Shown piece by piece: positions 46,694-60,488 of a stretch of DNA of 64,000 bases. This stretch comes from Candidatus Hodarchaeota archaeon. Lineage in GTDB: Archaea > Asgardarchaeota > Lokiarchaeia > Sigyniarchaeales > SOKP01. The stretch covers positions 160,001 to 224,000 of the forward strand of contig JBHLJY010000003.1 of NCBI GenBank assembly GCA_048887225.1, read 5' to 3'. The notes under the pieces are model-generated. The model did not search any database, was not told where the DNA came from, and saw only the letters and a program-made list of their open reading frames with translations. Every line of letters starts with the position of its first letter. Position 1 is the stretch's first letter. A program made the position numbers and the translations under genes.

Positions 46694-48934
46694 TTATTTT
46701 GGTAGAAATTTGAATACCCCTTCTAAATTTTTTGAAATTGCATCCCGCGAAAATAAAAAAGGTATATACTTGCCTCGAACATATGATTTCATTAAGTCTT
46801 TATAGTGCTTATGAAATGGCAATCCTGATTGACCGCCTGGAATAATCCCGATCGACTTATCCCAATCAGAGAGGTCATGAATTTGCCGGTACGAAGGTCC
46901 TACAGTCATTGCAAAATCACTTAAAGGATCGTAATAACCATTATTGAGCGTGTTCAAATCACCACCAATTTTGAAAGGGCCAATATTTAATGCTTTAGCA
47001 GCATCATCAGCGAGAGAAAATGGATGAACAAGCGTAAGTTTATGGAAATTCCCCCATTCCCACTTGTTATAATCTGAAGAAATTTTTTCAGACAATGAAT
47101 TAATTGTTTTTTCTAATGTGTTAACAAGAATTTCTTCAAGTCCCTCGGGTTTATCATCGTAAATTTTAAATAATCTATCGAGTTCATAAGGGCAACCACT
47201 TAAAGAAGCATCGAGAAATTCTTTATCAATATACGGATTAAGTATCGCTTTTATAGTTTCTAAGTGCCAGACCTTGTAAATAGTACCTGCCACACTCTTA
47301 CTTGTTAATTTATAATCCCACTTTTCTAATATTGATATTATTTCTGGAATTATTTTGGATATTGCTTTTGATTTTACTTTTTTTAGCATAATTGGTAGCA
47401 ATTCAGCAGCTTCTTCAGAAAACTGATCGTTTTGAAAATTTTTAATATCTTCTATCGAGAATTTTTCTTTTGACTGGAGTAAATTTTTTAATCTTTTTTG
47501 TCTGTAGAATCCTATTGAGTCTTGAGATATAAGTGCCCCATTAGGAGCTTTATCTTCGTTATAATTTGCTGTATACACAAAACTATAATCTGGATTGAAA
47601 ACTGAAAACATTTTTTCGAATGGAACTAAACCACACCAGTTGTATTTTTCATCCGTGCCAGGAGTAACCATGGCCCCATTCCCATATTTCCTTGTAGGGA
47701 TCTTTCCACCATGCTGATGCCCAATATTACCGTCTATATCGCCATAAAGAAAATTCTGAGGTGTAATAGTCATCAATTTCGTGCCATCTCTAAATTCATC
47801 CCAATTTAATGCTTTGTTAATTTTAAGGAATCCTTCCAAATTATCTTCAAGTTTTGCTCCGAAACTCGACCAACGCAAGGCATACTTTCCAGGGAGTTTT
47901 ATTCTATATATTTTATTATCTATCTCGAAATACTCTACGACAGGGCCAAATTTTGTCATTAACACTTTAAATGGTATAGGATTGGGCTCTTCCCTAATAG
48001 TTATTGGTTCTTCAATGATCTCGAAGTCTATCCATTGTTCGTTGTAAAGGTATTGGTTCTCATTTTCAGGATTTAATTCTAATTTAAATAAATCTACATT
48101 ATCTGCCGAGACATTTGTACATCCCCAAGCAATTCTTTTGTTATGTCCTAAAACAACACCAGGGAGCCCTGGAAAAGAAGATCCAAAAACATTTAAATCA
48201 GGGCAGTTTAGATGAATTAAAATCCATATAGCTGGCACAGTAAGAGGTAAATGTGGGTCGTTTGCGAATAATACTGATCCTGACACTGATTTATTAGGAC
48301 CTATTACCCATCCATTACTTCCGATAGGGTTCTCTAATTTAGCTCCTGAATAGAGTGGGATAATTTTATCTGCCATTTCAGGTCCTAATTTCATAACAAG
48401 ATGTTCACGCAATAACTCCAAAGGATAATTTCCACTCAAACCCCATTCAATTAAACTAACGATTTTAAAAGAATCTTCAAGCTTCCATTCCCTTGGTTTT
48501 ATCTCAAGAACTGAGAATTCGATCGGGGGATTAATCCTTGCTTTTTCAATACCTGCATTAACACCTGTTATATATGATTGTAACAATTGAAGTTGTTCAT
48601 TATCTGGTTCTTTCAATAATCTTTCGACACAATTTCTCGCGATCCGATGTAATCCAATTATTTTATAGTGTTTATCCATATCAAGAGTAACATTGCCAGT
48701 AAGTTCTGAAATTTCTCCAGTCGTTAACCGCCTAAAAAGTTCCATCTGCCATAATCGATGGCGTGCATGGATGTATCCTTGGGCACAATATGCATCTTCG
48801 AGTGATTTAGCATAAATATGGGGAATTCCCCATTTATCCCAAAGAATTTCAACCTCCTCTTTGATCCCTTCTAAAGATTCAGAACCTTCAGTAGGAGGAA
48901 AAGCATTTTTTGCAATTTGAAGTATTTCTTCCAT
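46694..48934 (-). CDS. Penicillin acylase family Ntn-hydrolase
   Basis: DKWGIPHIYA, AQGY.HA..RLWQM, GSNGWV (nucleophilic Ser), ANDPHL, GGQSG. Confidence 0.93.
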   Translation of the reverse strand: MEEILQIAKNAFPPTEGSESLEGIKEEVEILWDKWGIPHIYAKSLEDAYCAQGYIHARHRLWQMELFRRLTTGEISELTGNVTLDMDKHYKIIGLHRIARNCVERLLKEPDNEQLQLLQSYITGVNAGIEKARINPPIEFSVLEIKPREWKLEDSFKIVSLIEWGLSGNYPLELLREHLVMKLGPEMADKIIPLYSGAKLENPIGSNGWVIGPNKSVSGSVLFANDPHLPLTVPAIWILIHLNCPDLNVFGSSFPGLPGVVLGHNKRIAWGCTNVSADNVDLFKLELNPENENQYLYNEQWIDFEIIEEPITIREEPNPIPFKVLMTKFGPVVEYFEIDNKIYRIKLPGKYALRWSSFGAKLEDNLEGFLKINKALNWDEFRDGTKLMTITPQNFLYGDIDGNIGHQHGGKIPTRKYGNGAMVTPGTDEKYNWCGLVPFEKMFSVFNPDYSFVYTANYNEDKAPNGALISQDSIGFYRQKRLKNLLQSKEKFSIEDIKNFQNDQFSEEAAELLPIMLKKVKSKAISKIIPEIISILEKWDYKLTSKSVAGTIYKVWHLETIKAILNPYIDKEFLDASLSGCPYELDRLFKIYDDKPEGLEEILVNTLEKTINSLSEKISSDYNKWEWGNFHKLTLVHPFSLADDAAKALNIGPFKIGGDLNTLNNGYYDPLSDFAMTVGPSYRQIHDLSDWDKSIGIIPGGQSGLPFHKHYKDLMKSYVRGKYIPFLFSRDAISKNLEGVFKFLPK

Positions 48935-57292: not shown

Positions 57293-58366
57293 ATGGAAAC
57301 TTCTCATCAAATATTTTTAAAAAATTCTAATGATATGTGCGAAGTCGTATCAGATACAGTAGATTTAATAATAACATCACCACCCTATCCCATGATAGAG
57401 ATATGGGATTCATTATTTTCATCAATTAACGAAGATATTAGAGAAGCACTTCAAGTTCAAGATAAAAATGGACAAAGAGCTTTTATATTAATGCACGATG
57501 AATTAAATAAAATATGGAAAGAATCAGTTCGAGTTTTAAAATCTGGAGGAATTATATGTATTAATATTGGAGATGCTACAAGAAAGATTAATAAATGCTT
57601 TCAATTGTTTCCAAATCATGTCAAAATCACTAATTTTTTTTTAAAAAATGGGTTTATTGCATTACCTTTCATTTTGTGGAGAAAACCAACTAATATTCCA
57701 ACTAAATTCTTAGGATCAGGAATGTTGCCTCCCAACGCCTATGTGACACTTGAACACGAATATATTTTAATTTTTAGAAAAGGAAATAATAAAAGAAAGA
57801 TTCCCCCGAAAATGAAACAAAGATATTATAGTGCTTATTTTTGGGAAGAGAGAAATAGTTGGTTTTCGGATGTATGGACAGATATAAGAGGAACATCTCA
57901 AAAATTAACCTATAATAATGGCCAGCAAAATAAATTAAGAGAAAGGTCAGCAGCTTTTCCATTAAAATTACCTTATAGGCTAATAAATATGTTTTCTATT
58001 TATGAGGACACAATTTTAGATCCATTTTTGGGAACTGGAACAACATCTCTAGCAGCAATGGCTTCAGCAAGGTCCTCCATTGGATATGAAATTAATCCCG
58101 AATTTATGGAATTGTTTAAAAGAAATGTAAGGGCAATAAAGGAATTAACTAGTTCCATCAATATTAGTAGGATAAGCCAACATATTGAATTTATTAAAAG
58201 ATATAAAAAGGATAGAAAAAAAGTTTATTATAACTCTATTAATTATAGATTTCCCGTCATTACGCAACAAGAAAAAAACATATTACTCTATTCTATAAAG
58301 AATTACAAAGAAAAAGGGAATAGATTTATCGTTAATCACGAAAAATTTGAATACAATCACAAATGA
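57293..58366 (+). CDS. DNA methyltransferase, beta class (probably N4-cytosine)
   Basis: ITSPPY (motif IV) precedes LDPFLGTGTT (motif I). Confidence 0.92.
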   Translation: METSHQIFLKNSNDMCEVVSDTVDLIITSPPYPMIEIWDSLFSSINEDIREALQVQDKNGQRAFILMHDELNKIWKESVRVLKSGGIICINIGDATRKINKCFQLFPNHVKITNFFLKNGFIALPFILWRKPTNIPTKFLGSGMLPPNAYVTLEHEYILIFRKGNNKRKIPPKMKQRYYSAYFWEERNSWFSDVWTDIRGTSQKLTYNNGQQNKLRERSAAFPLKLPYRLINMFSIYEDTILDPFLGTGTTSLAAMASARSSIGYEINPEFMELFKRNVRAIKELTSSINISRISQHIEFIKRYKKDRKKVYYNSINYRFPVITQQEKNILLYSIKNYKEKGNRFIVNHEKFEYNHK

Positions 58367-58438
58367 AAACGTTTTAAATCTTGTTTAATATCTTAAAAGA
58401 GATAATTTTTGAGAGAAATCCTACCTGCGCTTAGGTAA

Positions 58439-58482
58439 TTCATCAAATAACTTTCCATGACCGGGTTTTTTATTTGAATCAT
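58439..58482 (-). promoter_or_regulatory. Candidate eukaryote-like SECIS element in the 3' UTR
   Basis: AUGAU-UCAAAUAA-AAAAC-CCG-GUCA-UGG-AAAG-UUAUUUGA-UGAA: AUGAN/NGAN core, perfect 8-bp helix, unpaired adenines, apical mini-stem. Confidence 0.72.
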
Positions 58483-58492
58483 TATTTTGGAT

Positions 58493-59422
58493 TTATTCAT
58501 CACAATCTTGAGCTTGTTGGAGATTTATTTTTATGAATCCAGCTTCTTGAATATTTCGCTGCTCTGATTTCACCGACCTATTAACTTGATTTAAATATTT
58601 TATTGCATCTCTTTTACCATCTGTAATATTTCGAATTAACTCGTCCTTGTTTAATCCACCGCTAATTGTCAGTGCTGTTTGGAATGATTGTTCTGGTTCT
58701 AAGGTTTTAAATTCTATTTGAAGAGCTGAGAGGATTTCACCAGGCTCTTCTTGTAGTTTATTCGAGAGATTTAATTTATCATTATTAATTTTAAACTCTT
58801 TAGTTAAGATACTTTCATAGTAAGTTGGTTTAGATATTGTAGAAAATCCAGCATGAATCCCAGTATAATCGTATTGATAAATAATATCATGTTCTTCATC
58901 ATATCCAGCAGTATCATTATCAAATCCAGAGAGTCCATTAATGTCGAAATCGAATACAAAATACATTGAAAAATCTATTAAATTAAAATTAGAGTTATTC
59001 TTTAACGTAAAGTATGTATTCATATATGGTGCTTGTCCTCGACGGAGAAAAATGTCAAGATATAGCCGTATTCGATTCTGCTCTTTTTTTAATGTGATTG
59101 GCTCCAATTTATTTTCTTCGATTGTTTTTTTTATATATTCATTGATATCAAAATCTAAGGTAATTCTATCGATAGCAGTTCCTGTTCGGCTATTTACAAG
59201 CTGATAAATAGGGGTTGGCTCAATATTTTTTAATATTACAGGTAAGGTTCCTATAGATTCTCCTTTCAATTTAAAGCTAAACCAAGGTCCAGAAAGCGTT
59301 GGTTCCGTGAGATATAATAAGTATTTTTGTTTAAATGTGATTTGTTTTATTGAAAATCCCATAAGGTAGCCAGCCGTGTTTCAAGTTGCAAAGATCTCAT
59401 TAAATAATACCTTTAATACTAT
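58493..59422 (-). CDS. Candidate selenoprotein of unknown family (309 aa, Sec at codon 14; the ORF track gives only 58493-59362)
   Basis: AGGAGGT, 9 nt, ATA GTA TTA AAG GTA TTA TTT AAT GAG ATC TTT GCA ACT TGA AAC ACG GCT GGC TAC CTT ATG, in frame with the 289-aa ORF; SECIS-like hairpin downstream. Confidence 0.68.
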
Positions 59423-59519
59423 ATTTCTCTTACCTCCTTTTATTTGAATTAATTTTAAATGATCTATTACTACTTAATTAAGAAAAAGTAATTTAATTAA
59501 ATAAATTTAGTTAAAAAAA

Positions 59520-60488
59520 TTAAACCGTTTCTATAAATCTATGTGCAATATATAGAAAAGCATCGTTAACATTTTCACCAGTCTTGGCGGATGTAATTAT
59601 ATAACGATCTCTGTATTCATCAGCAACCTCTTTAATATCAAATTCGCTCACAACAATATCATCAATTAAATCAGATTTATTACCAACAATAACAATAGGG
59701 ATATTTGTAAGGATGGAAGATTTAATTTCATTATACCAAAAATGAACACTTTCCTGATTATTTGGACGAGTTCTATCAACTACGATGATAGCAGCATTTG
59801 CTCCAGAATAGAATCGCTTTCTAAAAGGTATCATTTCCTGTTTTTGGCCACCAATATCCCAAATTATAAATTGAATTTTGGTTTCTGAACTAAGATCAAT
59901 AGTTTTTTTAGAGATTTCCACTCCAATTGTTGAAATATAATCTTCTTGAAACGAATTTTCGACGAATCTTTTAATTAAAGAAGTTTTACCGACTTGATAA
60001 TCACCGATTAAAATTAATTTTGTAGAATACTCACCTTTAGGGAGTACTCCTCCCTTGGATTTGGAAAGGAGTCTAATAATTTCAGGTATCTCAAGCGTTA
60101 CCTTTTCTGTACCAGAAATTAATAATTCTGCCTTTCCTGCTATATGTTCCGAATATACTCTCAATTCGAGGTCTGTCGTAGAAGGATCAGCTATAGTTGT
60201 AAGTATACTGTGAGGCCCTTGACTACAATATGCAAATTTTTTATCTTCTGTTGAAGTGATATTTAAAAAATTACTTTCTGTTCCAAACTCCTGTTTAATT
60301 CTATCAATATAGTTATCAAGAACCGCCGAAATGACACCAATAATCGAATCACTATCAGATTCTTCCCTGCTTTCAGAGGCAATAATTAATCCATCTCTAT
60401 CACAAACTGCAATTGCTTCCACGCCCTCAACATCATTCATGTAATTTCTAAGTAATTTACGAAAATCGTCTCGAAGCGACAATTTCAA
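59520..60488 (-). CDS. Roadblock-Rab/Ras-like GTPase fusion (paralog of 22797-23750)
   Basis: IAVCDRDGL; GDYQVGKT, YISTIG, WDIGGQ, NKSD, TSAK. Confidence 0.92.
   Translation of the reverse strand: MKLSLRDDFRKLLRNYMNDVEGVEAIAVCDRDGLIIASESREESDSDSIIGVISAVLDNYIDRIKQEFGTESNFLNITSTEDKKFAYCSQGPHSILTTIADPSTTDLELRVYSEHIAGKAELLISGTEKVTLEIPEIIRLLSKSKGGVLPKGEYSTKLILIGDYQVGKTSLIKRFVENSFQEDYISTIGVEISKKTIDLSSETKIQFIIWDIGGQKQEMIPFRKRFYSGANAAIIVVDRTRPNNQESVHFWYNEIKSSILTNIPIVIVGNKSDLIDDIVVSEFDIKEVADEYRDRYIITSAKTGENVNDAFLYIAHRFIETV

Follow-up and report, generated by a model that had tools for sequence, protein, structure and literature searches.

A predicted Asgard selenoprotein family with a glycosidase-type beta-supersandwich fold, concealed by an ATA start codon and an early in-frame UGA

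Introduction

Does a gene whose annotated product is a 'hypothetical protein' of 289 residues in fact begin 20 codons further upstream, at an ATA codon, and read an in-frame TGA as selenocysteine (Sec)? The question is raised by a locus within 64,000 nucleotides of a Lokiarchaeia genome (Candidatus Hodarchaeota archaeon, GCA_048887225.1, contig JBHLJY010000003.1, positions 160,001 to 224,000), which we refer to as the window. The initial annotation had proposed an unannotated selenoprotein of a non-thioredoxin fold, based on a Shine-Dalgarno (SD) motif followed by ATA, 13 codons, TGA, six codons and the annotated Met, a SECIS-like hairpin after the stop codon and a lone Cys at the extreme C-terminus. 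The body was guessed to be a beta-supersandwich like that of glycoside hydrolase (GH) N-terminal domains, resembling no described lokiarchaeal selenoprotein. If this were right, orthologues should be conserved on both sides of the TGA, Cys-for-Sec homologues should lack a SECIS, and the genome should encode the Sec machinery; a residue such as Trp or Arg at the TGA position would refute it.

Published surveys count 11 selenoprotein families in archaea and 7 in Asgard archaea, the latter being SelD/SPS, HdrA, VhuD/FrhD, VhuU/FrhA, PrxL, AhpF-N-like and DsbA-like (PMC4989117; PMC11227280). The largest Asgard survey searched solely by homology to known families.

Results

Reading frame and start codon

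The proposed layout was confirmed on the minus strand (Table 1), with six codons leading from the TGA to the ATG at 59362, where the annotated ORF begins, and a TAA at 58495-58493. Translation with TGA as U gives 309 residues with U14 and, as anticipated, a single Cys near the end of the chain. The same layout is conserved in 79 loci found by searching GTDB contigs, from Promethearchaeota/Lokiarchaeia-type MAGs (62-84% identity). The codon at the SD-defined start is ATA in 68 of them, ATT in 7, ATG in 3 (orthologues L066, L067 and L071) and ATC in 1, so ATG and near-cognate codons interchange at one site. Elsewhere in this genome, vhuD (G000 C1 about 229900, minus strand) and an ORF at C21 about 1900 (plus strand) have apparent ATT and ATC starts behind an SD, and other SD-led genes start with ATG, GTG or TTG; non-AUG starts may be enriched among its selenoprotein genes.

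Table 1. Positions of the features discussed (window coordinates unless a contig or locus is named).
Feature	Position	Strand	Remark
Shine-Dalgarno AGGAGGT	59432..59438	-	SD-like motif 7-11 nt 5' of in-frame start codon in 79/79 loci
Non-canonical start codon ATA	59420..59422	-	9-nt spacer after SD; aligns with Met1 of ATG-started Cys homologues
Unannotated 20-codon N-terminal extension	59363..59422	-	coding-type conservation; predicted first beta-strand and turn of sandwich
In-frame TGA, putative Sec14 (degenerate CxxU: F-A-T-U)	59381..59383	-	invariant in f1
Full predicted CDS, 309-aa selenoprotein	58493..59422	-	annotation covers 58493-59362 only, 289 aa
C-terminal Cys307, flexible tail	58502..58504	-	pLDDT under 50 (predicted models)
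Eukaryote-like lokiSECIS (type II-like)	58415..58492	-	conserved with compensatory changes
SECIS AUGA	58482-58479	-	10 nt past stop codon
SECIS perfect 8-bp helix	58477-58470 with 58450-58443	-	
SECIS UGAA	58442-58439	-	
SECIS side hairpin	58435-58424	-	
SECIS closing helix, 4 bp	58492-58489 with 58421-58418	-	
BHB-type insert site (this genome without insert)	59379..59380	-	insert in L033, L037, L057, L177, L263, L264
BHB-type inserts	L033:2953-2983, L037:2952-2983, L057:2956-2983		one base after putative Sec UGA
Roadblock/LC7 + Rab-like small GTPase fusion gene	59520..60488	-	Pfam Ras E 1e-37, Robl_LC7
Convergent N6/N4 DNA methylase gene (PF01555)	57293-58366	+	commonest f1 downstream neighbour, about 35/79
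tRNA-Sec, two introns (29 nt D arm, 31 nt T loop)	G000 C4:44554-44706	+	directly upstream of secS

Conservation of the TGA and the extension

The TGA stands seven codons before the internal Met in 76/76 uninterrupted loci (this window counted); in the remaining 3/79 it is present and falls in frame once an insert is removed. No Trp- or Arg-type residue that would have refuted the reading was found at this site, where only TGA or Cys occurs. Mean conservation over the 12 codons before the TGA is 0.74, 0.90 and 0.51 at codon positions 1, 2 and 3, respectively, compared with 0.86, 0.91 and 0.63 in the body and 0.54, 0.50 and 0.54 upstream of the start. As the six codons between TGA and Met are also conserved as protein, the expected conservation on both sides of the TGA is met. 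The extension frame contains exactly one TGA and no further stop. A frameshift via the out-of-frame ATG at 59401 was rejected, since in most loci stop codons interrupt both alternative frames. The sequence around the UGA shows no conserved RNA stem in excess of what its codons would predict (mean z 0.11 over 71 sequences), and this reading was likewise rejected. The best 120 protein matches are annotated as 285-292 aa, and all begin at the internal Met. In profile searches of Asgard genomes, the family gene was found in 123/134 sampled genomes of the Lokiarchaeia family f1.

A lokiSECIS element behind the stop codon

The hairpin seen after the stop codon is borne out as a SECIS by conservation, despite its weak folding energy (z -1.62; 13/200 shuffles equally good). 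All 8/8 pairs of helix II form in 77/79 loci, AUGA is present in 78/79, and the apical A-run is kept. Across 20 diverse sequences, 98.8% of helix II is paired and 5/8 pairs show changes on both sides, a result that no shuffled or slid control came near; because the structure was derived from the same 20 sequences, the count is biased in its favour. Rfam returned no SECIS family match for the element. Its AUGA, stem (7-15 bp), apical As, GA/AA and 3'-UTR location meet the eSECIS criteria, and it fits the eSECIS model of Huang 2024 (PMC11227280). With the lokiSECIS/eSECIS elements of Mariotti 2016 and Huang 2024 it shares the 3'-UTR AUGA_GA core, the apical A-run and a loop ending in AG. It differs in its apical part of 17-20 nt (19 nt here, comprising the A-run and a mini-stem), which resembles the longer SPS-type lokiSECIS (type II form) of Mariotti 2016 (PMC4989117) rather than the 11-nt loop of the others, and in the addition of a conserved side hairpin and closing helix. 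The SECIS scan of this genome also recovers the elements behind selD, vhuU and vhuD.

Sec machinery

The genome, which is 98% complete, encodes the expected machinery: SecS, SelB/EFSec and SelD (with one TGA) score above curated cut-offs, and a PSTK homologue (E 1.8e-45) falls below its cut-off. The tRNA-Sec has a UCA anticodon, a 9-bp acceptor stem and a long variable arm. Neither Rfam at its cut-off nor ARAGORN on the unedited genome called it, Rfam having missed it because of its introns; after manual removal of both introns, ARAGORN calls tRNA-SeC. A permissive ARAGORN intron run returned noise and was discarded. Archaeal-type Sec machinery and a tRNA-Sec with a 31-nt T-loop intron are shared with other lokiarchaeal/Asgard selenoprotein systems, for which Mariotti 2016 reported the T-loop intron of tRNA-Sec only (PMC4989117).

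Distant homologues with CxxC and CxxU

Profile searches of Asgard genomes found full-length homologues in six genome families (f1, f2, f3, f4, f28 and f31). The f3 proteins, which include Promethearchaeum syntrophicum DSAG12_02345 and Lokiarchaeum ossiferum NEF87_004727, are uninterrupted, ATG-started ORFs with a CxxC motif, which 44/45 f3-type clade proteins have. When all are aligned jointly, Met1 of the f3 proteins lies opposite the ATA and their second Cys (C14) opposite U14, with no gap between. We looked for a SECIS behind these f3 Cys genes and found none, so they are the Cys-for-Sec homologues that the selenoprotein reading called for.

A CxxU motif, the U of which aligns with U14, occurs in genus g2 of f1 and in f2, f4, f28 and f31; in the main f1 clade, a hydrophobic residue replaces the first Cys. 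In f31, which is Thorarchaeia-like by Atlas taxa, many genes possess an eSECIS of their own that overlaps the UGA stop. Behind the CxxU genes of f4 and f28 we found no canonical SECIS. Three f4 loci (L121, L124 and L133) carry a conserved small hairpin 3' of the stop, in place of the canonical AUGA_GA SECIS, which is possibly a variant SECIS element. The occurrence of CxxU in separate, well-supported clades suggests an ancestral motif that reverted to Cys in f3, although the tree does not resolve its deep branches.

The C-terminal Cys is also conserved in f1, f3 and f4, lying within the last 6 residues of 120/120 f1 proteins and in a terminal WC in 45/45 CxxC-clade proteins. One Thorarchaeia-like f31 member (L142/P0150) lacks the first Cys and has no other Cys either, and three proteins carry a CxxCxxC variant (P0137, P0141 and P0154). 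An apparent vWA fusion in L143 was not trusted, as there are masked bases at the joint. Full-length members are found almost only in SecS-bearing families, the exception being one 66%-complete genome; as related genomes are not independent, we treat this as a pattern rather than a statistic.

A probable mRNA intron beside the Sec codon

Six relatives carry an insert of 31, 32, 28, 32, 29 and 31 nt, respectively, exactly one base past the TGA. The inserts are all different, none is a multiple of 3 and each breaks the frame, which is restored in all six by excision at canonical bulge-helix-bulge (BHB) positions. Common to all six are a central helix of 4 bp, two 3-nt bulges and an interior that is self-complementary but differs in sequence. 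The central and inner helices and the 5' bulge are readily recognised; the exon-exon helix is displaced outwards by a few nt. All three carrier genomes checked encode EndA domains. Scanning metagenomes for the intron pattern produced 92 matches, and among the matches listed only one lay in a family gene. We consider the inserts a probable Asgard mRNA intron of the BHB, EndA-type, confined to one subclade, with splicing inferred from the sequences. That six different inserts have been kept precisely removable implies that the region must be read through, which supports the Sec reading.

To our knowledge, mRNA introns have rarely been described in archaea, the cbf5 intron being the classic case. 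This best-known example is crenarchaeal and EndA-spliced (PMC2738675). The inserts described here are likewise short, frame-breaking and of BHB geometry within a protein gene; they differ in their Asgard host, in their position one base past the putative Sec codon and in their restriction to a subclade of the relatives. Asgard tRNA genes often gain such introns (bioRxiv 10.64898/2026.10.13.758758).

Predicted fold

Searches of Pfam, NCBIfam and PDB sequences gave no match for the protein. The predicted model of the 289-aa ORF (P0001; pLDDT 79.5) has a disordered start (pLDDT about 50 over residues 1-20). By structure comparison it resembles the beta-supersandwich at the N-terminus of GH94, GH15 and GH116 enzymes (Foldseek E about 1e-7; VIA Z 17-18.5). 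A natural full-length Cys homologue, P0185, was modelled at pLDDT 88.6 and pTM 0.88. Here residues 3-13 and 18-30 form a beta-hairpin with CxxC at its turn, segment 21-40, which matches the disordered start of the 289-aa model, is well ordered (pLDDT 89), and the C-terminal Cys lies on a tail with pLDDT under 50. Alignments of P0185 reach 8-10 residues further towards the N-terminus of the GH94/GH15 domains, and the top Z is 20.7 vs 18.5. Although this compares models of different proteins (P0185 and the 289-aa ORF), the longer reach and higher Z indicate that the extension supplies a structural strand. Overall, the VIA matches (Z 18-20.7, rmsd about 3 A over 217-242 residues) have only 7-14% identity to the GH domains, and the best of them are beta-supersandwich domains spanning nearly the whole chain. 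With Z values of 17-20.7, the original guess at this fold is confirmed: as modelled, the protein is a beta-supersandwich of the GH94/GH15 type that stands alone and places (C)xxU at the turn of its first hairpin. It is probably cytosolic, as no signal peptide is evident.

The fold is shared with the N-domains of GH94, GH15, GH116 and GH65 hydrolases/phosphorylases, including the linker helices after the sandwich, and with a related domain of secreted S8 proteases; a wide profile also weakly matches GH15-like N-domains and S8-associated domains in sequence. However, the family protein lacks the (alpha/alpha)6 catalytic barrel of GH94/GH15/GH116, ends about 50 residues after the sandwich, and has two features of its own, (C)xxU on the first hairpin and a Cys on the C-terminal tail. 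No gene for an (alpha/alpha)6 barrel was recognised among the conserved neighbours. It thus has the fold of a glycosidase N-terminal domain, yet is not a glycosidase. The same sandwich domain was seen inside S8 subtilase-like proteins of roughly 1400 aa from several Asgard lineages, and at the start of GH15-like proteins of roughly 620 aa (L156-L170).

Gene neighbourhood

The nearest upstream gene on the same strand is a Roadblock-GTPase in 75/79 f1 loci and in 8/9 f3 loci, i.e. in every f3 locus with upstream DNA; this linkage is limited to f1 and f3 and absent in f4, f28 and f31. The AT-rich gap between the two genes, which contains T-runs, is 97 nt here and 63-201 nt elsewhere. A predicted complex of P0185 with its upstream GTPase scored 0.00, which counts neither for nor against an interaction. 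Any link between the GTPase and the selenoprotein gene, co-transcription included, rests on synteny only and is unproven. In two f28 loci (L127 and L131), the family gene lies two genes from secS, with a gcvH-like gene between and an frhB-like gene nearby.

Discussion

The invariant TGA, the Cys homologues, the SECIS, the machinery and the sandwich fold together support the proposal of an unannotated selenoprotein of a non-thioredoxin fold. On this comparative evidence, without RNA or proteomic data, we are close to certain that the gene is a genuine selenoprotein in which UGA14 encodes Sec. The competing view is that the TGA is a true stop, which would leave a 13-codon leader peptide and re-initiation at Met21 to give the 289-aa product. 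Met21 is indeed invariant in f1 (76/76 loci, 120/120 proteins), ATA initiates weakly, and the genome's SD-led long ORFs showed no second clear case of an ATA start. But Met21 has no SD of its own and is not kept as Met in other clades, and re-initiation there would not account for protein-level conservation of the codons between TGA and Met, for continuous ORFs in the Cys homologues, for a SECIS conserved only behind TGA forms, or for an N-terminus that is disordered when truncated and ordered in the full homologue. We regard a true stop as highly improbable, although the invariance of Met21 in f1 means that a short isoform in addition to the selenoprotein cannot be excluded.

How such a protein might work is far less settled. 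Ribosomes would initiate at the SD-led ATA, EFSec and tRNA-Sec would decode UGA14 as Sec under control of the 3'-UTR lokiSECIS, and the first beta-hairpin, judging by the model of the Cys homologue, would present (C)xxU at its turn. Sec14 could then be the exposed redox nucleophile of a redox switch or thiol/selenol oxidoreductase, with the sandwich holding the substrate, either a protein or a small molecule. In CxxU members Cys11 may resolve the oxidised selenol; in the clade without Cys11, the invariant Cys on the mobile C-terminal tail may do so. This unproven pairing of Sec14 with the C-terminal Cys would be at most one of two routes, because the motif inferred to be ancestral is a local CxxU, and L142, without any Cys, indicates that a resolving Cys is not obligatory. 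Low, selenium-dependent expression is the probable consequence of the weak start and the early UGA, again by inference. We know of no solved relative of the beta-supersandwich fold that is a redox enzyme, and the case for a redox role depends on motif logic only. CxxU/UxxC motifs usually signal redox selenoproteins (PMC13188914). Given a selenoprotein, we lean slightly towards this role.

Two further functions would keep the selenoprotein and change what the Sec is for. As a metal or metalloid ligand, together with Cys11 and/or the C-terminal Cys, it could serve a metal sensor or chaperone; CxxC, CxxU and CxxCxxC at a beta-hairpin turn would suit a knuckle, and retention of the terminal Cys in f1, f3 and f4 agrees with this. 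The main clade, however, offers only U14 and one terminal Cys, and L142 only U, which is too few for a Zn ribbon, and no metal-resistance genes were recognised among the neighbours, so that we consider this function unlikely without dismissing it. Quite unlikely, in our judgement, is a role in selenium handling or sensing, as a Se carrier or Se-dependent switch, possibly reporting to the neighbouring Roadblock-GTPase. The proximity to secS in f28, the near-complete restriction to SecS-bearing families, the conserved weak start with its early UGA, and the GTPase synteny in f1 and f3 would all fit; against it, f3 genomes use the Cys form despite having SecS, the gene is missing from several SecS-positive families, and the GTPase linkage from f4, f28 and f31. 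A fuller scenario builds on the redox role: an ancient Asgard-specific family (CxxU probably ancestral, with Cys reversion in Promethearchaeum/Lokiarchaeum) would have adapted an accessory beta-supersandwich of glycosidases to act as a selenol redox switch that regulates the neighbouring Roadblock-Rab-like GTPase in Promethearchaeales. Its synthesis would be gated by a non-AUG start and by Sec recoding, and in one subclade also by EndA splicing of the mRNA intron next to the Sec codon. This whole is speculative, and we doubt that all of it holds.

The impression that the protein resembles no described lokiarchaeal selenoprotein held up. It shares the in-frame UGA with known lokiarchaeal/Asgard selenoprotein genes (PMC4989117; PMC11227280), but is unrelated to all seven families and has a non-ATG start. 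By sequence and fold we found no homology to SelD, HdrA, VhuD, VhuU, PrxL, AhpF-N, DsbA-like, FdhA, FwdB or HesB-like proteins. Judged by names and domain identifiers, such a fold is absent from the 119 prokaryotic selenoprotein families listed in a 2026 review, and the family is not among the three Sif/Jord selenoproteins. We found no published description of it, including in Asgard and prokaryote lists from 2016-2026, within an incomplete coverage of the literature that left most subscription papers outside. We conclude that both the family and its fold are new to selenoproteins, within a recoding system that is already known, and that the gene fulfils every testable criterion for an Asgard lokiSECIS selenoprotein. 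It was overlooked because of its ATA start and the mere 13 codons before the UGA. Its presence in most sampled f1 genomes, and probably in most Thorarchaeia-like ones, means that it may rank among the commonest Asgard selenoproteins.

The family adds a fold to selenoprotein chemistry and points to a probable Asgard mRNA intron. Its conserved, covarying SECIS can be used for studying SBP2-free recoding, and both cultured Lokiarchaeia, through DSAG12_02345 and NEF87_004727, offer Cys homologues that can be tested. More unannotated selenoprotein candidates with SECIS elements were seen elsewhere in this genome, at G000 C21 about 1900-2700 and C18 about 47490-47810 (both plus strand): an ORF with two terminal TGA codons, a GDCCVxC-like ORF with several TGA codons, and an AhpD/CMD-like CxxU protein.
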